Notes: generated from the sequence alone by a model not told the origin. A stretch of 64,000 bases of DNA from Eubacteriales bacterium (GCA_045654725.1 JAZONX010000042.1:33805-97804); one strand, 5' to 3'. Numbered from the stretch's first letter, positions 27,495-52,538 are shown. Translations and numbers: made by a program.

Positions 27495-28202
27495 ATGAAA
27501 ATAATTTTAGTTGACGAAAGAATTACCGATAAATGCGAGAGAGCCTTGCGAAAGGAGGGTTTTCGGGTTATTATGCTTCCGGCCGACCCGGATCTTGGTC
27601 AGGCAGTAAAGTCGCACCCCGACACGCTTATTTTCAAGCTTGAAGACGAGCTTATCACCACAGCCGATTATTGTGACCGAGCCTCCTATATCTTCAGCGA
27701 CCTTCGTGAGATTTGCGACGTGAAAATCAGCTTCACATCGGACAGACGTGGCGACAAATATCCCTTCGATGCAGCGATGAACGGACTGGTTGTATACAAA
27801 TCGTTGTTTATAAACACAAAATCCGCATCAAGCTTCATTATAAATCGTGCGCGCGAACTAGGTTACACCGTCTGCCACACCAATCAGGGTTACCCCGCTT
27901 GCACGACACTCGCATTTGGAAATTACGCTATTACAGCCGACAGAGGCATGGCAAAAACCCTCAAGGAGCGCGGAATTAAGGTCACCCTCATCAGCGAGGG
28001 GCATATTTCCCTGCCCCCACACAATTACGGTTTTATAGGCGGAGCAAGCTTCGTTCAGGATAACAAGGTCTATTTCTTCGGCGACGTCACCTCTCACCCC
28101 GATTACGAGACTATACAGCTCGCGCTGCAAAACGCAGGATACGAGGCTATTTCGCTCTCGGACGAGCCTTTATGTGATTTCGGTGGCGCCATCATTCTTT
28201 AA
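27495..28202 (+). CDS. conserved-looking hypothetical protein (235 aa), soluble
   Basis: Continuous ORF with normal codon usage. The ATG at 27495 lies just after the GTG at 27489. No motif that I can assign. Confidence 0.55.
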   Translation: MKIILVDERITDKCERALRKEGFRVIMLPADPDLGQAVKSHPDTLIFKLEDELITTADYCDRASYIFSDLREICDVKISFTSDRRGDKYPFDAAMNGLVVYKSLFINTKSASSFIINRARELGYTVCHTNQGYPACTTLAFGNYAITADRGMAKTLKERGIKVTLISEGHISLPPHNYGFIGGASFVQDNKVYFFGDVTSHPDYETIQLALQNAGYEAISLSDEPLCDFGGAIIL

Positions 28203-29216
28203 CGCCACTCCAATGCTCACGGCAAGGACAGGCAAAAGAATAAGTCCTACAACGCCAAACAACGCGTAGCCAACATAGAGCAAAATCAAGGTTATTATCG
28301 GATGCAAATCCAGGCTTTTCCCAACAATTTTCGGTTCAGAGAACTGCCTTATCACAGCATTCACTACAAACAATACTATAAGCCCCACGCCGAGCAGCTT
28401 ACTTCCAAAGGCAATCTCAAGCACTCCCCAAGGAATCAGCACTGTGCCGACACCGATAATTGGCAGAATATCGAGCATAGCCACAAGCAGAGCGAGTGTA
28501 AAGGGCTTTTCCACCGAGAGAAGCAAAAATCCGACGAGAAGCGTGCCGTAGGTAATAAGCATAATCAAAGAATAGGAGCGAATATACCTACCTATCACTC
28601 TCACTATACCCCGGCAGAGGCGTGACGCCGTATCTACAAGTCTCTCCGGCAAAAGCTGACGGACAAATCTACTGATCCTGTCGTAATCGAGCGAAAAATA
28701 GACGAGCGAGATCAGCGTAACGATGATAAAAAGGAAACTTCTCGGCAGAGCCGTGACAACAGAGGTAACACCCTCGGCAATGCCTGTTAGAATGGCGGTA
28801 AGCATATTGCCAAGCATTTCGCTTATCATAAACGAAACCTCCTCGGGTAGTTTATCACCAAGGATAGGCTTTTTTGTCGATAGCAGAGAGTTCAGTAGCT
28901 CGTTTAGTCTTCCGCCCTCTCCTACGTCAACGAGAAGGTTGCGCAAGGCGGACACCACCTGCCACGCGAAAAGTCCGATAACTAGCAGAATTGCAAGCAC
29001 AAGCAAAAGCGAGAGCAAAAGTCTTGTCACCTTAACCGAAGCGCGTGTCTTTTTTGCCAAAGTTTCTGCGGGAGCACGGGTGAAGCTTGCAATCAGCCAG
29101 GCGATAATGAATGGCATCATAACGGGAAGCAGATATTTGACACCCAATATAAGGAGTATTAAAAAAGCAAGTATCCCGACCGAATATAGCGCGAAACGGA
29201 TCAATTTATCTCTCAT
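28170..29216 (-). CDS. ytvI: AI-2E/PerM-family membrane protein, sporulation protein YtvI-like
   Basis: About 8 TM segments. N-terminus LLPVMMPFIIAWLIA and C-terminal PKIVGKSLDLHP motif, typical of the AI-2E family. Confidence 0.7.
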   Translation of the reverse strand: MRDKLIRFALYSVGILAFLILLILGVKYLLPVMMPFIIAWLIASFTRAPAETLAKKTRASVKVTRLLLSLLLVLAILLVIGLFAWQVVSALRNLLVDVGEGGRLNELLNSLLSTKKPILGDKLPEEVSFMISEMLGNMLTAILTGIAEGVTSVVTALPRSFLFIIVTLISLVYFSLDYDRISRFVRQLLPERLVDTASRLCRGIVRVIGRYIRSYSLIMLITYGTLLVGFLLLSVEKPFTLALLVAMLDILPIIGVGTVLIPWGVLEIAFGSKLLGVGLIVLFVVNAVIRQFSEPKIVGKSLDLHPIITLILLYVGYALFGVVGLILLPVLAVSIGVALKNDGATEIT

Positions 29217-29308
29217 TTCTACCTCCCGAAAATACGCTATATAATATTATGGACTAAACAAGGAAAATAATTACATATAATATAAATTACACTAAAGGAG
29301 ATAATAAT

Positions 29309-29779
29309 ATGGTAGTAATTGAAATGGAAAACGGCGGCAAAATCGAGCTCGAGCTCTATCCCGAGGCTGCGCCCAAGACAGTGGCAAATTTCCTTAAGCT
29401 GGTAGGCGAAGGCTTCTATGACGGACTCATCTTCCACAGAGTCATTCCCGGATTTATGATTCAGGGCGGCGACCCCCTCGGCAACGGCATGGGCGGCTCC
29501 GACGAAAATATTATCGGTGAATTCAAGGCAAACGGTCACGACAATCCTATTAAGCACACCCGCGGCGTAATCTCTATGGCGAGAGCATACAACCCCAACT
29601 CTGCATCATCGCAGTTCTTCATTATGCACGCTAACGCACCGCACCTCGACGGTCAGTATGCCGCATTCGGCAAGGTTGTCAGCGGTATGAATGTTGTTGA
29701 CGAGATCGCATCAATTCCCACAGATTATAGCGACAGACCGAAGATCGCTATGAGAATGAAAAAGGTATACGTTGTTTAA
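29309..29779 (+). CDS. ppiB: peptidyl-prolyl cis-trans isomerase, cyclophilin type
   Basis: FHRVIPGFMIQGGDP and SQFFI motifs. Confidence 0.92.
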   Translation: MVVIEMENGGKIELELYPEAAPKTVANFLKLVGEGFYDGLIFHRVIPGFMIQGGDPLGNGMGGSDENIIGEFKANGHDNPIKHTRGVISMARAYNPNSASSQFFIMHANAPHLDGQYAAFGKVVSGMNVVDEIASIPTDYSDRPKIAMRMKKVYVV

Positions 29780-29789
29780 TTGGCAGCGC

Positions 29790-29825
29790 AAAAAAGAGGA
29801 CGGAAAATCCGTCCTCTTTTTTTTA
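29790..29825. terminator. bidirectional terminator (ppiB / secreted protein A)
   Basis: Stem AGAGGACGG (29795-29803) / CCGTCCTCT (29809-29817) between an A-run and a T-run. Confidence 0.8.
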
Positions 29826-29836
29826 TTTAAAAGAAA

Positions 29837-31897
29837 TTATTTCTTCTTGAAAACGCCGAAGATCTTGTCAAAGAATTCCTGGAACATCTTTACAAGCTTC
29901 TCCCAGAAGGTAAGCTTTCTGTAGGTCTTCTTAATAGTTGTAGTGGGCTTCTTCTCCTCCTCAGTCTCGTCCTCGCTAGGAGTATCGGGAGTATCAGGAG
30001 TATCAGGAGTATCAGGTGTGTCGGGAGTATCAGGCTCTTCGATCTCGAAGTAGTGCCACTGACCGTCTACGTTGTTGTAAAGGATGTAGTCATCCTTGGG
30101 AACGAAGAGGTCTGCAGACTGCTCAAGAGAACCGTCATCATTGGTTCCACCATTGTGGAAGAGCACATGAAGGGTACCTGCGGGAACTACCGCATAGTAG
30201 AGGCCGTCCTCACCAAGCTCCATTGCTGTGCCGGGCCACTCGATAGTGCTATCACCATCCCAGTAATAGAAGTAAACCTCGGACCAACCCTTGTCGTTCT
30301 TAACAACAACGGTAACGTCGTGCTCGGGAGGAAGAATAGGCTCAGGAATCTCAAACTCATCAACTGTGCACCAAGGATCGTTCTCGGTCTGAGAACCGCC
30401 TGCCTGACCTGCGCAAAGGCTATTGTCACAAACAACCTTGGCAGAACCTTTTACAGGAACCTTAAGGTCAGCAGTCTGGTTAGAACCGTCGTTGAAGATA
30501 ATGTTCTCGAAGCAAACGGGAACATCTGCATAGTAGAGACCGATCTCGTCGTCATACTCCATGGGAAGACCGGGCCAACCGCCATTCTGGATGTGTGCGC
30601 CGTCAAGAGTGCCCCATGCGTACCAGTTGGGAGCGCCCCAACCAAGGTTGTCACCAAGATAAACCTTGATGGTCTCATACTCGGAGAAATCAGGTGCGGA
30701 AGGAAGCTCGGGCTTCTCGATCTCAACGGAGGGATCGTAGTCCTCAAGAGCCATCCACTCGCCTGTGCCGTTGTTATAAACGATCTTGCTCTGATCGATA
30801 GTGTTAAGAGCGATATCACCTGTCTGAACATCATTACCGTTATTGAAGATAACGTAAGAATATGCCTCGGGAATCATTACGGGATAAAGAAGATATGTAT
30901 CCTCGTAAACGTCGTTACCGGGCCAATCCGAACGAACCTCACCTGCATCGTTCCAGGTGTAGTAAGCAACTACATCCCACCATGCGGTGTTGTAGATGTA
31001 TACCTTGTAGTAGCCGTCAACCGCCTCGATGGGGTTATCAGCGGGCTCGGAGGGAGTTACGGGAGGAGCAACTGTACCGCTGCCACCACCTGCGTAACTA
31101 AGAACGAGGGTATCGCCCTCACCCTTTGTAAGAGTGAATGTTACCTGACCCGAAGGAACGAACATCTTCTCACCTGCGCCGGTAGAAGCGTTGTGAAGAG
31201 TAGCGGTCTTGTCCTGGCAGTAGGACTGGGTGTAGTAGAATACGTTTTCACCGGTCTTAACAAGAACGTAGCTGTCTGCGGTGAAGTTAACGGTAAGAGA
31301 ACCGTCAACGAACTTGTAAATACCAAGATTAGCAGCATCGTCTACAATACCGTAGTCAGCGTTGTTGATGTAGCCTACAAGATAGAAATCACCGGTAAGT
31401 GCTTCGGGCTCGTCGGGAGTCTCGGGAATTTCGGGAATCTCGGGCTCGTCAGGAGTTTCAACTGCACCGAAGGTAGTCCAGTGGCCTGTGCCCTTCCACT
31501 CATAGCTCTCATTCCAAGATTCATCAAGAACGTAGAGATTGTTTCCGTCTGCAGGAAGAGTAAGGTCAACAGTCTGAGAATCCTTGTTATCCCAACTTGC
31601 GCCTGCACTAGCAGACTTAAGGCTAACGAAAATAATGTTTGTATAACCTGCGGGAATTGTTGCGGAGAATGTCAGGGTCTCGCCCTCGACAGCATCCAAA
31701 ACAGCCCAACCGCTACCACTATCATTCCAATAGTAAGCAGCAAATGCCTCGGAATACTGATCCCATTCGGCAGTAGGCTGGAAATATACTGTTGTGCCGC
31801 CCTCATCTGCAGCGGAAACGCCAACAGCAACAAGGCTCATCATCATTGTAAAAACAAGGAGGAGAGCAAGAAGAATTTTGCGAGTATTGTTCTTCAT
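29837..31897 (-). CDS. secreted multi-module protein A: signal peptide, 4 CBM25/26-like modules plus one unknown module, (PDT)6 linker, C-terminal amphipathic tail
   Basis: Signal peptide MKNNTRKILLALLLVFTMMMSLVAVGVSA. Repeated W..Y.W......WPG..M....G.Y...(I/V)P.....(I/V)IF..G...Q(T/S).D(L/I) modules. No catalytic domain, LPXTG, SLH or dockerin. Confidence 0.75.
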   Translation of the reverse strand: MKNNTRKILLALLLVFTMMMSLVAVGVSAADEGGTTVYFQPTAEWDQYSEAFAAYYWNDSGSGWAVLDAVEGETLTFSATIPAGYTNIIFVSLKSASAGASWDNKDSQTVDLTLPADGNNLYVLDESWNESYEWKGTGHWTTFGAVETPDEPEIPEIPETPDEPEALTGDFYLVGYINNADYGIVDDAANLGIYKFVDGSLTVNFTADSYVLVKTGENVFYYTQSYCQDKTATLHNASTGAGEKMFVPSGQVTFTLTKGEGDTLVLSYAGGGSGTVAPPVTPSEPADNPIEAVDGYYKVYIYNTAWWDVVAYYTWNDAGEVRSDWPGNDVYEDTYLLYPVMIPEAYSYVIFNNGNDVQTGDIALNTIDQSKIVYNNGTGEWMALEDYDPSVEIEKPELPSAPDFSEYETIKVYLGDNLGWGAPNWYAWGTLDGAHIQNGGWPGLPMEYDDEIGLYYADVPVCFENIIFNDGSNQTADLKVPVKGSAKVVCDNSLCAGQAGGSQTENDPWCTVDEFEIPEPILPPEHDVTVVVKNDKGWSEVYFYYWDGDSTIEWPGTAMELGEDGLYYAVVPAGTLHVLFHNGGTNDDGSLEQSADLFVPKDDYILYNNVDGQWHYFEIEEPDTPDTPDTPDTPDTPDTPSEDETEEEKKPTTTIKKTYRKLTFWEKLVKMFQEFFDKIFGVFKKK
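29981..30034 (-). repeat. 9-bp tandem repeat x6 encoding (Pro-Asp-Thr)6 linker
   Basis: Minus-strand units are CCTGATACT, CCCGACACA, CCTGATACT, CCTGATACT, CCCGATACT, CCCGATACT. Confidence 0.9.
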
Positions 31898-31935
31898 AAT
31901 ATAGTTCCTTTCTTATAATTATAATACTCTAGTTA

Positions 31936-31964
31936 ATTATATCACACGCGTAAAAATATTACAA
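31936..31964 (-). promoter_or_regulatory. promoter of secreted-protein gene A
   Basis: On the minus strand: TTGTAA (31964-31959), 17-bp spacer ending in TGA, TATAAT (31941-31936). Same architecture as gene B. Confidence 0.6.
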
Positions 31965-32025
31965 TATGCTTTTAAATATTTGAAGATTTTTGTGAAACCT
32001 TTACAAACCGATTTGTTTATTTTAT

Positions 32026-32056
32026 TAAAAAAGAGAGACGCCGAAGCGTCTCTCTC
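32026..32056 (-). terminator. terminator of secreted-protein gene B
   Basis: 10-bp stem AGAGAGACGC (32032-32041) / GCGTCTCTCT (32046-32055) with a CGAA loop. On the minus strand it is followed by TTTTTTAA. Confidence 0.8.
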
Positions 32057-32076
32057 AAATATTTATTGTTCAGGAA

Positions 32077-35000
32077 TTAGTCCTTCTTGCCGAAAAGATT
32101 CTTGAAGAAGTTAAGAATTGCCTGCCAGATTCTCTGGAAGAAGTTGAGCTTGGGAGCTTCCTCTACGGGAGTCTCGGGCTCAACGGGAGTTGTGGGCTCG
32201 TCGGGAATCACGGGATCATCAACGGGAGGAACATAGTTAGGATCGGACTCACCACACTCGCACTTGCCGTCAACGTAGTTGTGCTCATGCTCGGGCTCTT
32301 CGGGCTTAACAGCGAGAGTAAAATCGAACTCTCTCTGCTCGCCGATGTAGTCGAAGTTGATGCCTACCCAGTAGTAACCTGCTGTAGCAACGGTGAACTC
32401 AAGGCTGGAAAGGAGCTCGTAAGTAGCGTTATCAACGTTCCAAACGAATGCCTCTGTACCGGTAAGAGTTGCATCAGGGCTAGCATAGAATACGTAAACT
32501 ACGAGAGGATCACAACCATTGATTACATATGTGCCGGGCTCAAGGTAAACTGCAAGCCATTCAGCCTTAGCTGCAAGGAGCTCTTCGGAAACGATGTAGT
32601 GGTTGTCACCAAGAACGATAGCGTTCTTGTGAACGGGAGCGTCAAGAGACTCAAGAGTAACTGTGAATTCACCAGTTACGCCTTCCTTACCTGCGCATAC
32701 ATAGTATGTGCCAGGCTCAAGAGTAGCGGTACCGGAGAAGCCACAGAGACAAGCGCTGAGGTCAGCAAGATTCATCTCGGAGTAGATGTAGCAGTTAAGA
32801 TCTGCGCTGGAAACCTTATATGTACCAGCCTCGGTGATAACAAGCTCAAGCCATGCGATAGCATTGCCGGTAAGGTTAGTTACGGAACCGTCGATAACAA
32901 CGGTGTTGTCGCCAAGAACGAGAGCAGGAAGCTCGGGCTCCTCAACAGGAGGCTGAACCCACTCAGACTTAGTAACTGCAACGTTGAACTCGCCAATAAG
33001 GCCGTTACCTAAGCAAATAGCATAGTAGCCAACCTCAAGGTTAGCTGCGCCTGTGCCACCGCAAAGGAGGTTGCCTTCAAGGTCAAAGATGTATGCAAGA
33101 GCGCCATTATCACCTACGAAGGAATAATGAGCTGCTTCGTCTACTACGAAGGTAACCCACTCGATAGGAAGGTCGTACTGGTTAACAGTGTTACCGGTAA
33201 CAACGATCTTGTTGGTGTCGCCAACAACGAGAGTGTTAACGTGAGGAGTCTCGGGCTCGGAAGCCTTTGCAACGAGCTCAAGCTGGAAGATGTAGTTGTT
33301 ATCAGCGGGAATTGTGAGATAGTATGTACCTGCTGCAGGAAGCTCAAGCTCTGCATAGTACTGAGTGTTCTTTACGGTCTCGGTTGTAGTGGAAGAAAGA
33401 GCTGCGCCATCAGCATCACGAAGCTCGAAGTATCTGCCGTCGCCACCTGCAACGTACCAGATCTTAAGGGTGTGAGCACCGTCAACGGTGATCTGGATAG
33501 CATTCTTAGTGGGAACACCGCTATTGGTCTTGCCACCAAGGCTGAATCTCAAAGTACCGGAGAAGTCATCCCAGGTCTTTTCGCTTCCATCAACTCTGGA
33601 GTTCTTGCCATAGATGAATGTGAAGATGTCGTTGTACTTGTAAACATCGCCGTCAGCGTAGGTTCCCTTAGCGAATTCTTCCCACTCGGAGAAGTTGATA
33701 AGCTTATCGTTAGCGGGAGCTACGTAATCGGGATCTGCTGCTTCACATACGGAGCACTTGCCATCAACGTAGTTGTGAGCGCCTGCGATAGTTTCCCAGC
33801 AGTTCATGCACATGCCGCCTTCACAAGGATCAACAGTGTGAACAACAGTGAACTCAACGCCACAGCCTTCAGCCATACATGTGCCGGTCTGACCGCAAGT
33901 GAGGTACCAGTTGTAGTGACCCTGAGCCTCGGTCGAGTAGCTCTCAACGAATCCACAGATTGAGCAAGCTGCGTAGTATTCGCCAGCCTCTGTACAGGTT
34001 GCAGGAACATCCTTCTCTACAACCATGTCATGAGAGTACTCATAGTAAATGGTCTGTTCTTCAAACTGACCACAACCGTTAGCGCAAGCTACCTTCTTAA
34101 GACCGTTGGTCTGGGTAGCGCAGTTTACGGGAGTGAGAATTTCTTCATCGCCCCAGAAAGCGTGAGCCTCGGGATCGATAGCAGTTTCACGGGTTTCAAC
34201 CGCGCTGCAAAGAGAACAAATGTAAACGTCAACACCTACGGTTACGCAGTCAGCAGCTACCATCTGAGGATGCCAGCCAACTACCTGCTCATAGTTGTGC
34301 TCACAGGGAGCTGCAACTACAACTGTAACATTAGCGCCATCGAAGGTGATGGTAACGGTGCTGCCAGCGGTAGCAACGCTATAAGCCTCGTCAGCAGCGG
34401 GATATGCAGTACCCCAATCGTGGTCACGTGCAACCTTGAACTTATAATCGCCTGCTGCAACGTTCTCATATACTTTAGTATAAACGCCATCAGCATAGGA
34501 CATATCGTTAGCAGTGTTTCCGGTATCCCACTCAGTGCCAAGGTGTGCGCCGGTGCCTGCAACTGTGAAGCTAGCCTGACCGCCACATCTTTCGCACTTG
34601 TGTGCGGAATCGTAGCTGTGACCGAGAGCAGAAGCTACGGGGTCGCCACAGTCAAGGCATACCTGAGCTGTTGTACAGGTAGCAGCCTCGCCGAGGTTGC
34701 TGTGAGTGCAGGTAGAGCCGTATGTGCTCCAGCTTCCGCCACCCTTATCCCATGTATTTTCCTTAACGGTGTAATGGTTAGGACCATCAGTAGGAACAGT
34801 GAGATCAGCGGTCTGATTCCACTTGTTACTCCAGTTATTTGCGGATGCGTTGGGGTTCATTCTGCAGAAGATAACGCTGGGGTATCCTGCAGGAACATCA
34901 ACTTCATAAACGCCGTCTCCATCGGAGTCGGTCATGCTTACCCATTTTTCGCCATTTCCGAAGAAATAAGCAGCGAAACGAGCGTTATCCTTCTTCCAAT

Positions 35001-35127
35001 TCGCATTGGGAGTAAGGTAAAGCTTCTCGGGTGCTTCAGCACTTGCGGTAAGTGTAAGTGCTGCCATGCTCATCAAAATTGCCATTACGACAACGAGAGC
35101 AACTAAAATTTTGCGTGTGTTTCTCAT
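32077..35127 (-). CDS. secreted multi-module protein B: signal peptide, CBM-like module, Cys/His-rich CxxC repeat blocks, beta-sandwich repeats, Pro-rich linker, C-terminal amphipathic tail
   Basis: Signal peptide MRNTRKILVALVVVMAILMSMAALTLTASA. About 40 Cys, mostly in CxxC pairs (aa 140-182 and 275-462). Three repeats of about 100 aa (L.LGDN...W....... G(T)Y). The tail is KLNFFQRIWQAILNFFKNLFGKKD. Confidence 0.75.
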   Translation of the reverse strand: MRNTRKILVALVVVMAILMSMAALTLTASAEAPEKLYLTPNANWKKDNARFAAYFFGNGEKWVSMTDSDGDGVYEVDVPAGYPSVIFCRMNPNASANNWSNKWNQTADLTVPTDGPNHYTVKENTWDKGGGSWSTYGSTCTHSNLGEAATCTTAQVCLDCGDPVASALGHSYDSAHKCERCGGQASFTVAGTGAHLGTEWDTGNTANDMSYADGVYTKVYENVAAGDYKFKVARDHDWGTAYPAADEAYSVATAGSTVTITFDGANVTVVVAAPCEHNYEQVVGWHPQMVAADCVTVGVDVYICSLCSAVETRETAIDPEAHAFWGDEEILTPVNCATQTNGLKKVACANGCGQFEEQTIYYEYSHDMVVEKDVPATCTEAGEYYAACSICGFVESYSTEAQGHYNWYLTCGQTGTCMAEGCGVEFTVVHTVDPCEGGMCMNCWETIAGAHNYVDGKCSVCEAADPDYVAPANDKLINFSEWEEFAKGTYADGDVYKYNDIFTFIYGKNSRVDGSEKTWDDFSGTLRFSLGGKTNSGVPTKNAIQITVDGAHTLKIWYVAGGDGRYFELRDADGAALSSTTTETVKNTQYYAELELPAAGTYYLTIPADNNYIFQLELVAKASEPETPHVNTLVVGDTNKIVVTGNTVNQYDLPIEWVTFVVDEAAHYSFVGDNGALAYIFDLEGNLLCGGTGAANLEVGYYAICLGNGLIGEFNVAVTKSEWVQPPVEEPELPALVLGDNTVVIDGSVTNLTGNAIAWLELVITEAGTYKVSSADLNCYIYSEMNLADLSACLCGFSGTATLEPGTYYVCAGKEGVTGEFTVTLESLDAPVHKNAIVLGDNHYIVSEELLAAKAEWLAVYLEPGTYVINGCDPLVVYVFYASPDATLTGTEAFVWNVDNATYELLSSLEFTVATAGYYWVGINFDYIGEQREFDFTLAVKPEEPEHEHNYVDGKCECGESDPNYVPPVDDPVIPDEPTTPVEPETPVEEAPKLNFFQRIWQAILNFFKNLFGKKD

Positions 35128-35170
35128 AATAATTTCCTTTCTTACAAAAATTTTTTATCACGCTGGAGTA

Positions 35171-35199
35171 ATTATACCATATTTAGAATAAATTTACAA
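35171..35199 (-). promoter_or_regulatory. promoter of secreted-protein gene B
   Basis: On the minus strand: TTGTAA (35199-35194), 17-bp spacer ending in TGG, TATAAT (35176-35171). The RBS is GTAAGAAAGGAA, as in gene A. Confidence 0.6.
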
Positions 35200-35334
35200 T
35201 ACGGTTTTTCAAAATGTATTCTTTTTGTGAAGATTGCACAAACGTTTTTTCTTTGCATAAAACAACCGAAAATCAGAGTTATTTGTCAAAAAAGTGAAAA
35301 ATGTTCATCTTTGCCGAATTTTTCTGACAAGGGA

Positions 35335-35406: not shown

Positions 35407-36057
35407 TTAAAGAAGCAGCTTAAGGATCTCTTCAGGAGTGTCAACAATATAAGTAAATCCCGAGCTTTGAAGTTCTTCCCTGCTTCCATGTCCCCAGCAA
35501 ACACCCAGGCTGTCGATTCCGCAAATTTTCGCGCCCTCGGCATCGTACATTCTGTCACCGATGAGGATTGCTTTGCTTCTGTCAGCATCCACCGAGTTGA
35601 GGCTGTACTCGAGCACCTGCCACTTGTGGTCGCGGTTGTCGCCCTTCGCTCCGCCGAGGAAATCAAAATACTTGTCAAGACCGAAAAGCTTCATTATCTT
35701 AATAGCAGTGTCTTCAGGCTTCGAGGTAGCGAGAACTATGGTTTTCCCCGCCGCCTTCAATTTCTCAAGCATCTCAACGATACCGTCGTAGACCTTGTTA
35801 TCCCACCAACCGTAGATATTGTAATATTCTCTGAATTTCTCGATGGCCTCCACAACGGTTGTTTCGTTGAACCCGAACTCATTCTGCCAAACTACGTAGA
35901 GTGATGGACCGATAAATCTTCGAAGCGACTCGCGGCTTCCGTAATCGGTAACACCCATCTTTTTGAATGCATAAATGAAGCCCTCGATAAGGCCGTTTTC
36001 AGGCTCGGTCAAAGTCCCATCAAGATCAAAAGCGATAACGTCGTATTTTTTCATCAT
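35407..36057 (-). CDS. HAD-superfamily phosphatase (phosphoglycolate phosphatase / nucleotidase-like)
   Basis: Motif I FDLDGTL, motif II ATSK, motif IV GDRMYD. Start trimmed to MMKKYD. Confidence 0.8.
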   Translation of the reverse strand: MMKKYDVIAFDLDGTLTEPENGLIEGFIYAFKKMGVTDYGSRESLRRFIGPSLYVVWQNEFGFNETTVVEAIEKFREYYNIYGWWDNKVYDGIVEMLEKLKAAGKTIVLATSKPEDTAIKIMKLFGLDKYFDFLGGAKGDNRDHKWQVLEYSLNSVDADRSKAILIGDRMYDAEGAKICGIDSLGVCWGHGSREELQSSGFTYIVDTPEEILKLLL

Positions 36058-36084
36058 TACCTCACTAAAACAAAATGCATCTAC

Positions 36085-36113
36085 ATTATAGTATAAATTT
36101 GCCAAAAAGTCAA
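36085..36113 (-). promoter_or_regulatory. sigmaA promoter of the HAD gene
   Basis: On the minus strand: TTGACT (36113-36108), 17-bp spacer, TATAAT (36090-36085). Confidence 0.65.
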
Positions 36114-36123
36114 CAAAATATGT

Positions 36124-36152
36124 AAAAGCCCCACAAATGATGTGAGGCTTTT
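36124..36152 (-). terminator. gdhA terminator
   Basis: On the minus strand: AAAAGCCTCACA-TCATT-TGTGGGGCTTTT, with one mismatch in the stem. Confidence 0.6.
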
Positions 36153-36219
36153 CAAGGCTTCCTCTTGAGTGGAAGCTGTCACGTATCGACTGATGAGGTG
36201 TAGATTGCAGTACAATCGT

Positions 36220-37569
36220 TTAAACCACGCCCTGCGCTAGCATAGCGTCTGCAACTTTAAGGAAGCCGGCAATATTTGCGCCTGCAACGAGATTGCCTTC
36301 CATACCATATTTTTTAGCGGCGGAAACCGAAGCGTCAAAGATATTCTTCATTATCATTTTAAGCTTCGCGTCAACCTCCTCTGCAGTCCAGGAATATCTC
36401 ATGGAATTCTGGCTCATTTCAAGCCCGGAAACCGAAACTCCGCCTGCGTTAACCGCCTTTGAGGGAGCAACCGCAACACCCTTGGACATAAGGTAAGCAA
36501 CCGCCTCGTTGGTAGTGGGCATATTAGAAACCTCTATGTAATATTTCACGCCATTGTTAACGATCTTTTCAGCGTCAGCAACGTCAACCTCGTTCTGCGT
36601 AGCACAAGGCATAACAATATCAACCTTAACGCCCCAAGGCTTCTCACCCTTGAAGAAGGGAACACCGAATTTATCCGCATAATCCTCTGCTCTGTTGCGA
36701 CAGGAAGCGCGCATTTCAAGAAGATAGTTGATCTTCTCCTCGGTGTTGATGCCATCCTCATCGTAAATATAGCCGTCGGGACCGGAAATGGTAACAACCT
36801 TGCCACCAAGCTCGGTTATCTTCTTTACGCATCCCCACGCAACGTTGCCAAAGCCGGAAATTGCAAAGGTTTTACCCTCAATGCTGTCACCGTAGTACTT
36901 GAGCATCTCAACCGCATAGTAAGTAGCACCAAAACCGGTCGCCTCGGGACGAATAAGAGAACCACCGTAAGGAATTCCCTTGCCTGTGAGCACGCCGGTG
37001 AACTCATTCTGAAGGCGCTTGTACTGACCGAAAAGATAACCAACCTCTCTCGCGCCAACACCAATATCACCTGCGGGAACGTCTGTATCGGGACCTATGT
37101 ATTTTGCGAGCTCGGTCATAAAGCTCTGACAGAAGCGCATAACCTCGTTATCGCTCTTTCCCTTGGGATCGAAGTCAGATCCACCCTTACCTCCGCCCAT
37201 GGGAAGACCTGTGAGCGAGTTTTTGAAGGTCTGCTCGAAGCCGAGAAACTTAATAATACTCTCGTTTACAGAGGGATGGAATCTGAGACCACCCTTGTAA
37301 GGACCGATTGCGCTGTTGAACTGAATACGGAAGCCACGGTTTACCATTACCTTACCATCATCGGCAAGCCACGGAACGCGGAATTTGATAATTCTCTCGG
37401 GTTCTACTATGCGTTCGAGAACGCCGCTGGTAACGTAAATGGGTGTCTGCTCGATTACGGGCTCAATAGATTCAAGCACCTCGCGAACAGTCTGATGAAA
37501 TTCGCCCTCTCCGGGATTACGTCTGATGACGGTTTCCATAAGGTCGTTAAGATATTGAGATTTGAACAT
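36220..37569 (-). CDS. gdhA: glutamate dehydrogenase (NADP-type, hexameric family)
   Basis: GGGKGGSDFDPKGKS catalytic-lysine region and GFGNVAW dinucleotide motif. Start trimmed to MFKSQYL at 37569. Confidence 0.92.
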   Translation of the reverse strand: MFKSQYLNDLMETVIRRNPGEGEFHQTVREVLESIEPVIEQTPIYVTSGVLERIVEPERIIKFRVPWLADDGKVMVNRGFRIQFNSAIGPYKGGLRFHPSVNESIIKFLGFEQTFKNSLTGLPMGGGKGGSDFDPKGKSDNEVMRFCQSFMTELAKYIGPDTDVPAGDIGVGAREVGYLFGQYKRLQNEFTGVLTGKGIPYGGSLIRPEATGFGATYYAVEMLKYYGDSIEGKTFAISGFGNVAWGCVKKITELGGKVVTISGPDGYIYDEDGINTEEKINYLLEMRASCRNRAEDYADKFGVPFFKGEKPWGVKVDIVMPCATQNEVDVADAEKIVNNGVKYYIEVSNMPTTNEAVAYLMSKGVAVAPSKAVNAGGVSVSGLEMSQNSMRYSWTAEEVDAKLKMIMKNIFDASVSAAKKYGMEGNLVAGANIAGFLKVADAMLAQGVV

Positions 37570-37604
37570 AAGATTTATCTCCTTGAGTAGATTTACATAC
37601 AAAA

Positions 37605-37633
37605 AATATACCACAATCGAGCGCAAAAATCAA
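37605..37633 (-). promoter_or_regulatory. sigmaA promoter (TG-extended) of gdhA
   Basis: On the minus strand: TTGATT (37633-37628), 17-bp spacer ending in TGG, TATATT (37610-37605). Confidence 0.55.
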
Positions 37634-51779: not shown

Positions 51780-52538
51780 TTATGCGTTTGCTGCCTTAAC
51801 GATTGCAGTAAACTTGTCGGTCTTGAGCGAAGCTCCGCCGATAAGTCCGCCGTCAACGTTAACCTTTGCAAGAAGCTCTGCCGCGTTAGCATCGTTCATA
51901 GAGCCGCCATACTGAATAGTAGTGCTCTCGGCAACCTCGGAGCCAAAGAGCTCGGCGAGAGCTGCACGAATAACACCGCAGGTTTCGTCAGCCTGCTCAG
52001 GGGTCGCAGTAAGACCAGTTCCGATCGCCCAAACGGGCTCGTAAGCGATGATAACATTCTTCATTTCCTCGACAGAAACGCCCAAAAGGTCAAGTTTTGT
52101 TTGCATTCTAACCACTTCATCGGTGATTCCGTTAAGTCTTTCGTCCTTAACCTCGCCAAGGCAAAGGATAACTTTCAAGCCTGCAGCAAGAGCTGCTTTG
52201 GTGCGAAGATTAACGGTTGTATCGGTTTCACCAAAGTACTGTCTTCTCTCGGAGTGACCGATTACAACATACTCTGTACCGATCTCGCAGAGCATCTTCG
52301 CGCTGATCTCACCGGTGTAAGCACCGCTTTCAGCGAAGTGTACGTTCTCAGCGCCGATCTTGATATTAGTTCCCTTCGCGGCTTCAACCGCGGTAGCAAT
52401 ATCAACGTAAGGAACACAAAGCACGATGTCACACTTATTCATTCCCGCCACCATAGGAGCGAGCTCGGTAATAAAAGCTTTTGTCTGTGCAGGCGTCATG
52501 TTCATCTTCCAGTTGCCTGCAATTACTGTTTTTCTCAT
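51780..52538 (-). CDS. tpiA: triosephosphate isomerase
   Basis: AGNWKMN, the catalytic His in VIGHSERR, and AYEPVWAIGTG. Confidence 0.93.
   Translation of the reverse strand: MRKTVIAGNWKMNMTPAQTKAFITELAPMVAGMNKCDIVLCVPYVDIATAVEAAKGTNIKIGAENVHFAESGAYTGEISAKMLCEIGTEYVVIGHSERRQYFGETDTTVNLRTKAALAAGLKVILCLGEVKDERLNGITDEVVRMQTKLDLLGVSVEEMKNVIIAYEPVWAIGTGLTATPEQADETCGVIRAALAELFGSEVAESTTIQYGGSMNDANAAELLAKVNVDGGLIGGASLKTDKFTAIVKAANA

Follow-up and report, generated by a model that had tools for sequence, protein, structure and literature searches.

A family of amphipathic C-terminal tails in tandem predicted starch-binding proteins and other exported proteins of uncultured gut Clostridia

The 64,000-nucleotide stretch of DNA from Eubacteriales bacterium that was analysed here (GCA_045654725.1, JAZONX010000042.1:33805-97804; hereinafter the window) contains two adjacent minus-strand genes, which we denote A and B, encoding large secreted proteins that end in similar short, cationic, aromatic-rich tails. 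An original prediction made from the sequence alone held that these tails represent an in-plane membrane anchor or a sorting signal, reused together with the promoter, signal peptide and linker around different passenger domains.

Two tandem genes for predicted secreted starch-binding proteins

Both genes are open reading frames (ORFs) located where they had been predicted, and each is followed by its own terminator hairpin (Table 1). In the protein encoded by gene A, the AlphaFold2 model combined with Pfam matches delineates five beta-sandwich domains, including three CBM26 domains (Pfam E=1.4e-33; 115 bits, cut-off 28), followed by a linker and the tail. The best matches of this model in a Foldseek search of the PDB are alpha-glucan binders, namely CBM41 of SpuA, CBM26 of Amy13K from Eubacterium rectale, Sas6 and Sas20 of Ruminococcus bromii, and CBM25 (entries 6b15, 7uww, 2c3w and 7raw). 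The product of gene B, which is identical to the database protein P0140 (P and L numbers denote database proteins and genomic loci, respectively), consists of an N-terminal CBM26-like domain, cysteine-rich repeats, an X25 domain (X25_BaPul_like; Pfam E=6.8e-10; 39 bits, cut-off 27), beta-rich regions without assignment, a linker and the tail. CBM26 in A and X25 in B, both above the Pfam gathering score, together with the folds matched by the A model, therefore suggest that the two proteins are multi-modular starch adherence proteins, predicted to bind alpha-glucans, starch in particular, and to be devoid of a catalytic domain.

The N-termini of the two proteins, MKNNTRKILLALLLV...VSA in A (with cleavage before A) and MRNTRKILVALVVV...ASA in B (with cleavage before E), display the n, h and c regions and the AXA site of a signal peptide when read by eye, and their starts are nearly identical, as previously noticed. 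Residues M1-K7 of A are invariant across 20 homologues (36-74% identity). The similarity between the two proteins extends beyond the signal peptide: residues 3-148 of A align with residues 2-141 of B with 36% identity (BLASTP, E=1e-25) and, therefore, the signal peptide was inherited jointly with the beta-sandwich domain that comes first in the mature protein. The claim that the mature parts are unrelated thus does not hold, given that the first mature domains are homologous and that both proteins are predicted alpha-glucan binders.

Table 1. Features of genes A and B (positions counted from the first letter of the window; RBS, ribosome-binding site)
Feature	Positions	Strand	Basis
Hairpin terminator after A, bidirectional, common to the convergent peptidyl-prolyl isomerase (PPIase) gene	29790-29822		GC-rich hairpin and T-run
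Gene A, secreted starch-binding protein (predicted), 686 amino acids	29837-31897	-	ORF; Pfam; AlphaFold2; Foldseek
Tail of A, KLTFWEKLVKMFQEFFDKIFGVFKKK, predicted capped cationic amphipathic helix	29840-29917	-	hydrophobic moment 0.78, peak at 100 degrees, charge +4; AlphaFold2
Pro/Asp/Thr/Glu linker of A, disordered, residues 622-660	29918-30034	-	pLDDT 30-41, without secondary structure; sequence
First mature domain of A, residues 30-145, homologous to that of B	31463-31810	-	BLASTP
Signal peptide of A, residues 1-29, MKNNTRKILLALLLVFTMMMSLVAVGVSA, followed by A	31811-31897	-	read from sequence
Promoter TTGTAA-17-TGaTATAAT (31964-31936), leader and RBS AAGAAAGGAA (31914-31905) of A	31905-31964	-	consensus scan; sequence
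Palindrome-like box TTGTAAAGGTTTCACAAAA upstream of A, candidate regulator site	31988-32006	-	same box and spacing at B
Intrinsic terminator after B	32031-32056	-	GC-rich hairpin and T-run
Gene B, secreted protein, 1016 amino acids	32077-35127	-	ORF; identical to P0140
Tail of B, KLNFFQRIWQAILNFFKNLFGKKD	32080-32151	-	hydrophobic moment 0.76, peak at 100 degrees, charge +4; tail profile retrieves P0140
Pro/Glu/Asp/Thr linker of B, residues 967-992	32152-32229	-	sequence
First mature domain of B, residues 31-141, homologous to that of A	34705-35037	-	BLASTP
Signal peptide of B, residues 1-30, MRNTRKILVALVVVMAILMSMAALTLTASA, followed by E	35038-35127	-	sequence; alignment to A
Promoter TTGTAA-17-TGgTATAAT (35199-35171), leader and RBS AAGAAAGGAA (35143-35134) of B	35134-35199	-	consensus scan; sequence
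Palindrome-like box TTGTGCAATCTTCACAAAA upstream of B	35223-35241	-	same box and spacing at A

A C-terminal tail family in exported proteins

The pattern by which the tails of A and B had originally been aligned, searched as far as its FG residues with the trailing ..KK left out, matches both proteins and nowhere else in the six-frame translation of the window. The similarity is far above chance: the linker and tail segments of the two proteins align with E=9e-7 in a pairwise BLASTP comparison, and an exhaustive search of 1.84 billion representative proteins with a 34-position tail profile produced 87 matches (clusters) at E<=1e-3, nine of these at E<=1e-10, among which B itself (P0140) was retrieved along with 84 other C-terminal tails. 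In 85 of the 87 matches the tail ends no more than 13 residues from the C-terminus, the two exceptions being weak multi-stretch matches, and an acidic, proline-containing linker precedes it in 85 of 87 as well, in agreement with the predicted strict C-terminal location behind a linker. A homologue search seeded with 42-residue segments comprising linker and tail yielded only seven short fragments, and the names of the clusters say just 'starch-binding protein [Clostridia bacterium]'. The core of the tail can be described as E-[LM]-[NTS]-F-[FL]-Q-K-[IL]-x-K-A-[IL]-x-x-F-[FL], continued by repeats of the FFKxIG or FFKNLF type and closed by a terminal lysine cluster.

Using a hand-made degenerate DNA pattern for tails of the LNFF type, we also scanned one genome per species for 185,579 species. 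Of the 60 loci detected, about 40 are true tails, with the motif starting 21-39 codons before the stop codon, and all of these come from metagenome-assembled genomes (MAGs) labelled Acutalibacteraceae, Oscillospiraceae, Ruminococcus sp., Eubacteriales or Clostridia, mostly from the guts of ruminants or other animals; several genomes contribute two or three loci each. About 15 matches in unrelated phyla, a number at the chance level, are not located at ORF ends. Because the DNA pattern covers only LNFF-type tails, the per-genome and taxonomic counts are lower bounds. GTDB places R. bromii in the Acutalibacteraceae, so the tail-bearing organisms are presumably relatives of this bacterium.

Export is the common denominator of the carriers, as had been expected: every complete one has a Sec signal peptide, a lipoprotein signal or a signal-anchor at the N-terminus. 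Three apparently cytoplasmic carriers, P0100 (NifS-like), P0110 (NusB-like) and P0113 (TpiA-like), turned out to be truncated housekeeping N-termini fused in frame to a linker and tail, and are probably chimeric metagenome assemblies or deletion products. The tail is also retained in orthologues of both genes, including P0001 for A and several orthologues of B (up to 64% identity); on the syntenic contig L001, the A and B orthologues are found in identical order. Neither Pfam nor NCBIfam has a model that matches the tail, and scans of tails in isolation gave only noise even at E<=10; no significant match was found among PDB sequences; and full-text literature searches, including those with literal peptide strings, did not retrieve any description of it. 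Accordingly, neither a match to a described anchor or sorting domain, nor cytoplasmic or internal use, nor loss from the orthologues of A and B, each of which the original prediction had named as evidence against itself, was found. Judging from the sequences, the tail is a genuine C-terminal module, not curated before, that exported proteins of an uncultured gut clade carry.

An amphipathic segment resembling the tail is also found at the start of MalF-type sugar ABC permeases (YKLTFFQRIGYRLKKFFKG...; L014:3164-3219 in a Clostridiales MAG and L024:5969-6024 in a Ruminococcus MAG). Homology was considered and rejected, given that the segment scores only 17 bits against the tail hidden Markov model (HMM) and the loci had been preselected by the DNA pattern; the likeness is probably due to convergence.

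The tails have the physical properties of an amphipathic helix and not those of a transmembrane (TM) span, in line with the original prediction. The 18-residue hydrophobic moments of the A and B tails (0.76-0.78) are maximal at 100 degrees, and the longest uncharged run in these tails is 5-9 residues. All 124 distinct tails examined are amphipathic, with a mean moment of 0.62, a maximum at 100-102 degrees and a mean z-score of 3.6 against their own shuffles (above 2 in 98%). On average, the tails are 21% aromatic, carry a net charge of +3.1 and contain 4.5 charged residues within the first 22; the longest uncharged run averages 7.3 residues and reaches 15 in a single tail. These charges and short uncharged runs imply that the tails are not TM segments. 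A rough Wimley-White estimate gives -8 to -12 kcal/mol for interfacial folding. In the AlphaFold2 model of A, the tail is a lone helix (residues 664-684) that follows a 40-residue disordered linker and starts with F664, directly after T663. Tail position 2 is N, T or S in 98% of the sequences and position 5 is Q or E in 95%, a spacing that would fit a helix N-capping box. The length classes (22-24, 28-31, 38 and 41 residues) lie seven residues apart, and MAFFT independently opens a seven-column gap; such steps would preserve one continuous hydrophobic face. The tail is conserved while the adjoining linker diverges freely, although the composition of the latter is characteristic across the family (22% E, 19% P and 13% D in the 12 residues before the tail). 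Lysine is the commonest residue at the last four positions.

The passengers are diverse. Pfam searches of 46 tail proteins detected X25 in 28, CBM26 in 19, AMPK1_CBM in 6 and CBM77 in 3 proteins, as well as pectate lyase, Metallophos, SdrD_B and Laminin_G_3 domains, and the genomic loci add a PL1 lyase with CBM77, a Pel9A-like beta-helix, GHL10, three calcineurin-like phosphoesterases and a CotH protein. Each of the non-starch passengers has an ordinary Sec signal peptide, but each has a different one. Given these different folds and signal peptides, the tail is a module common to unrelated exoproteins.

Comparison of the homologues of A shows what may take the place of the tail. An alignable C-terminal tail is present in 49 of the 69 homologues, and the signal peptide of the MKNNTRKIL type is found in 48 of these 49 tailed proteins versus none of the 20 tail-less ones. 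Among the latter, P0066 carries a dockerin (Dockerin_1, E=6.5e-5) in the slot of the tail, and P0023 and P0030 have a sortase-type end (NPDTG, hydrophobic segment, KKK). Thus, the tail occupies the slot in which homologues carry a dockerin or a sortase signal. Four further tail-less CBM26 homologues of about 1,100 residues (P0022, P0025, P0062 and P0063) share another conserved C-terminus (...GYSIGAYC...AVYGYHAKAYFG), without a match in Pfam or NCBIfam, that may be another uncharacterised C-terminal module.

In addition, some tail genes encode no passenger at all, only a lipobox or TM segment, an acidic, proline-containing linker and the tail (P0114, P0145, P0117 and P0083; L064:1032-1268, L065:427-798 and L063:255-524). 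Those in L064 and L065 each come with a promoter, RBS and terminator of their own, and the L064 gene lies directly upstream of a starch-binding gene of the cassette type described below (MKN(T) start). Each passenger-less gene is a singleton, and the metagenomic contigs that carry them are short (0.5-1.6 kb).

Several tail proteins contain cysteine-rich elements. The motif HxYxDGKCxCGxxDPNY is present twice in B (residues 451-468, positions 33724-33777; and residues 949-965, positions 32233-32283) and in 25 of 117 tail proteins as opposed to 2 of 27 tail-less ones, usually some 19 residues ahead of the tail, and in P0083 three copies follow one another in tandem. The motif might form a disulfide or zinc knot and serve as a spacer. 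Moreover, residues ~140-410 of B (positions ~33900-34700) consist of repeated zinc-ribbon-like units, H..(A/P)TCTE(A/T)G.....C..CG, that are not matched by any Pfam model; similar units are found in the fragments P0085, P0091, P0103, P0111 and P0115.

The promoter and signal peptide cassette

Genes A and B were originally noticed to share a promoter layout and RBS context, and both features are borne out: in a consensus scan, the TTGTAA-17-TATAAT elements with upstream TG at the two genes are the two best promoter-like sites of the region, and the same RBS lies about 8 bases upstream of both ATG codons. The promoter and leader of A are conserved at orthologous and paralogous loci. Furthermore, a palindrome-like TTGTN6TTCACAAAA box is located exactly 24 nt upstream of both -35 hexamers. 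Altogether, the cassette of promoter, leader and signal peptide, with the CACAAAAA box, TATTGTAA, TGnTATAAT and a near-identical leader (AGCGTGAACAAAAATAAAATAAAGAAAGGAAA or AGAGTATTTATAAATATAAGAAAGGAA), is common to 27 genes in 15 loci and species; besides the window, it was found in L001, L003, L006, L008, L017, L023, L031, L032, L038, L044, L045, L056 and L064. The cassette genes share even synonymous codons, with Arg nearly always encoded by CGC and the following Lys by AAA. Such conservation points to a common regulator and to selection acting directly at the RNA or DNA level, and makes the cassette a candidate marker of a co-regulated starch-adherence regulon. A further copy of the box, with one mismatch (TTGTATCGGTTTCACCAAA), is present at positions 52217-52235 of the window.

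The idea that promoter, signal peptide, linker and tail have been reused as one unit around different passengers stands in part. The tail indeed occurs on unrelated passengers; the promoter, leader and signal peptide, on the other hand, belong to a single paralogous starch-binding family that forms tandem arrays. Because the pectate lyase, phosphoesterase and CotH carriers have other signal peptides, the cassette is not a mobile unit travelling with the tail.

One flank of the A/B locus carries HAD-hydrolase and glutamate-dehydrogenase genes, the other flank those of a cyclophilin PPIase and of an AI-2E transporter (28170-29779, 35407-37626). These housekeeping neighbours recur in 6-9 of the loci that were retrieved (L001, L008, L017, L023 and others), with one to three tandem tail genes inserted.

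Possible modes of action of the tail

Most likely, the tail holds A, B and the other carriers at the cell surface. As to how it does so, we favour, at about an even chance, an autonomous in-plane C-terminal membrane anchor resembling that of the penicillin-binding protein PBP5. Each carrier would be exported by Sec and its ordinary AXA signal peptide cleaved, after which the last 22-40 residues would leave the translocon beside the bilayer and fold into a single amphipathic helix, N-capped, cationic and rich in aromatic residues, that would lie in-plane in the outer leaflet of the cytoplasmic membrane. Anionic envelope polymers are also a possible target. The acidic Pro/Glu/Asp/Thr linker and the chain of beta-sandwiches would reach outward through the wall, so that the N-terminal carbohydrate-binding modules meet the substrate; glycan-binding modules and enzymes would thus be tethered, probably reversibly, without a sortase, a cohesin-dockerin pair or wall-binding repeats. 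We prefer this reading because of the strict C-terminal position of the tail, its association with export signals and its amphipathic, cationic, aromatic design kept across heptad indels, and also because the tail occupies the dockerin/sortase slot and no enzyme or receptor recurs in its neighbourhood. The features expected of an in-plane anchor are present, namely an N-terminal export signal in all complete carriers and an amphipathic C-terminal helix too polar to span the bilayer, whereas membrane binding, orientation and retention are what we infer from them.

Several observations speak against such an anchor. The most serious difficulty is posed by the passenger-less genes, which are apparently genuine and for whose products a pure anchor provides no obvious job. 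The core residues E-1, Q5, K6, K9 and A10 are also more conserved than a generic lipid-binding helix needs, which capping box and lysine snorkelling would explain in part. A helix bound to the membrane sits beneath a thick wall, so that the passengers must reach through it, and B alone has a 19-residue window, LNFFQRIWQAILNFFKNLF, that is marginally competent for TM insertion on the octanol scale. Finally, although no dedicated enzyme or receptor recurs near the tail genes at the approximately 40 loci, a processing gene might reside elsewhere in the genome.

The passenger-less genes, the conserved polar positions and the heptad pattern keep alive a different model, the main rival though an unlikely one, in which the tail is a docking helix. 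In this case, the tails would bind each other or a receptor through the aromatic heptad face, forming a Phe-rich helical bundle, and the small membrane-anchored tail-only proteins would be the partners in a minimal analogue of the cohesin-dockerin system in relatives of R. bromii. The transcription signals of the tail-only genes and the position of one of them directly upstream of a starch-binding cassette gene are compatible with this possibility, as are the seven-residue indel steps with a/d-like hydrophobic spacing, the occurrence of several tail proteins per genome and the dockerin in the same slot of P0066. However, these genes are singletons on very short contigs, a moment maximum of 100-102 degrees cannot tell a heptad coil from a surface helix, the net charge of about +3 on every partner disfavours homo-bundles, and no receptor family is recurrent near the tail genes. 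The more far-reaching version of the model, in which starch binders, pectate lyases and phosphoesterases as cargo would bundle with membrane-tethered tail-only proteins via Phe-rich heptad helices into an undescribed surface-assembly system of uncultured Acutalibacteraceae in place of a lipid anchor, is somewhat more doubtful still. The tripartite layout of the tail, in which a conserved motif is followed by a segment rich in hydrophobic residues and by a K cluster at the end, all behind a linker of the wall-spanning type, together with a motif conservation that exceeds the needs of amphipathicity, might instead be read as a processed sorting signal. The E-[LM]-[NTS]-F-F-Q-K head would then be recognised by a putative transpeptidase or protease, and the semi-hydrophobic segment and terminal lysines would provide a stop-transfer signal that retains the protein, comparable to those of LPXTG or PEP-CTERM systems, until removal of the tail allows its attachment to the wall or its release. 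We consider this improbable. Although the extreme C-terminus is basic, as in sortase substrates, the uncharged hydrophobic span of ~15-25 residues typical of these is not found, and 123 of the 124 tails have no hydrophobic run of TM length; to our knowledge, a charge-rich tail of this kind is unlike every known sortase, exosortase or rhombosortase signal. No candidate enzyme is recurrent in the ~40 neighbourhoods, no LPXTG-like pentapeptide and no match to Gram_pos_anchor or TIGR01167-type models was found in A, B or the 124 tails, and scans of isolated tails with the PEP-CTERM, GlyGly-CTERM, PGF-CTERM, Por secretion tail and similar NCBIfam/TIGRFAM models, like those with the sorting-signal models of Pfam, returned only noise even at E<=10.

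A true TM anchor of type I topology, which would place the terminal lysines on the cytoplasmic side, would agree with the positive-inside rule and with the value of -7.4 kcal/mol for the above window of B on the octanol scale (a rough figure). On the same scale, however, A scores +4.9 and the common long form +1.4 kcal/mol, the short forms leave only ~18 residues between the cap and the lysines, and the charge content and uncharged runs of the family point the same way, so we regard this as a quite improbable explanation. Even less credible is that the tail is a functionless relic conserved through recent paralogy or gene conversion within one starch-binding family. A and B did inherit their signal peptide, first domain, promoter and leader from a common ancestor, and such genes form tandem arrays; but the tail is also present on pectate lyases, phosphoesterases, GHL10 and CotH proteins with unrelated signal peptides and promoters, it is conserved beside a freely diverging linker, and its amphipathicity is preserved across indels.

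As far as established surface-attachment modules are concerned, the original observation that A and B contain no LPXTG motif and no SLH, dockerin, LysM, GW, CWB2 or choline-binding domain holds, and extends to the other carriers: Dockerin_1 has no match in A, B or the 46 tail proteins (P0066 serving as the positive control), and none of the SLH, LysM, CWB2, GW/SH3 and choline-binding Pfam repeats was detected among 46+12 tail proteins. The probable mode of action of the tail belongs to a known class, that of in-plane anchors. We take the hydrophobic moment of the A and B tails to be comparable to that of the PBP5 anchor. The C-terminus of PBP5 was the first in-plane membrane anchor to be described (PMC1564421). 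The carriers would resemble PBP5 and PBP6 of Escherichia coli in Sec export, a cleaved signal peptide and a C-terminal amphipathic helix of ~20 residues on the outer face of the cytoplasmic membrane that involves neither a TM span nor a processing enzyme. Unlike in these peptidoglycan enzymes, with which it has no sequence homology, the tail follows a long acidic, proline-containing linker, constitutes a conserved mobile sequence family with heptad-step lengths, and belongs, in monoderm gut Clostridia, to proteins that bind glycans and to polysaccharide lyases. The pestivirus glycoprotein Erns also has a long C-terminal in-plane amphipathic helix, with partial retention and partial secretion of the protein (PMC3937272, PMC4536213), but in a viral, eukaryotic ER context, with a length of ~60 residues and no homology to the tail. 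In composition and periodicity, the tail is similar to LL-37 and the phenol-soluble modulins (PSMs), LL-37 being the best PDB match of the tail profile (FKRIVQRIKDFLRNL versus FQKIWKAILDFFRKI); neither this match (E=0.31) nor that to PSM-epsilon (E=0.93) is significant, and these are free peptides, not protein termini, so the likeness would be one of analogy and not of homology. With respect to overall architecture, the closest counterparts are Sas6 and Sas20 of R. bromii (dockerin) and Amy13K of E. rectale (LPXTG), in which CBM26, X25 and CBM25-like modules on flexible linkers are combined with a C-terminal anchoring module (PMC9112005); the R. bromii amylosome paper mentions sortase and dockerin as the only means of anchoring. 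In the proteins described here, the C-terminal module is a predicted single helix, with neither a calcium-binding dockerin repeat nor a sortase signal.

How Gram-positive gut fibre degraders without cellulosome-type machinery retain glycan-binding proteins and enzymes at the cell surface is poorly understood, and the tail-bearing organisms, presumed relatives of the keystone starch degrader R. bromii from the guts of ruminants and other animals, have so far been seen only in the form of MAGs. Should the docking model prove correct, a single-helix module would take over from cohesin-dockerin or sortase anchoring, and an amylosome-like layer would be built by it. If the tail is a machinery-independent anchor of 25-40 residues, as we favour, surface-proteome prediction would change, given that the carriers now look freely secreted; a simple HMM would provide a marker for cell-associated carbohydrate-active enzymes, and the tail itself could become a very small display tag for Gram-positive hosts.

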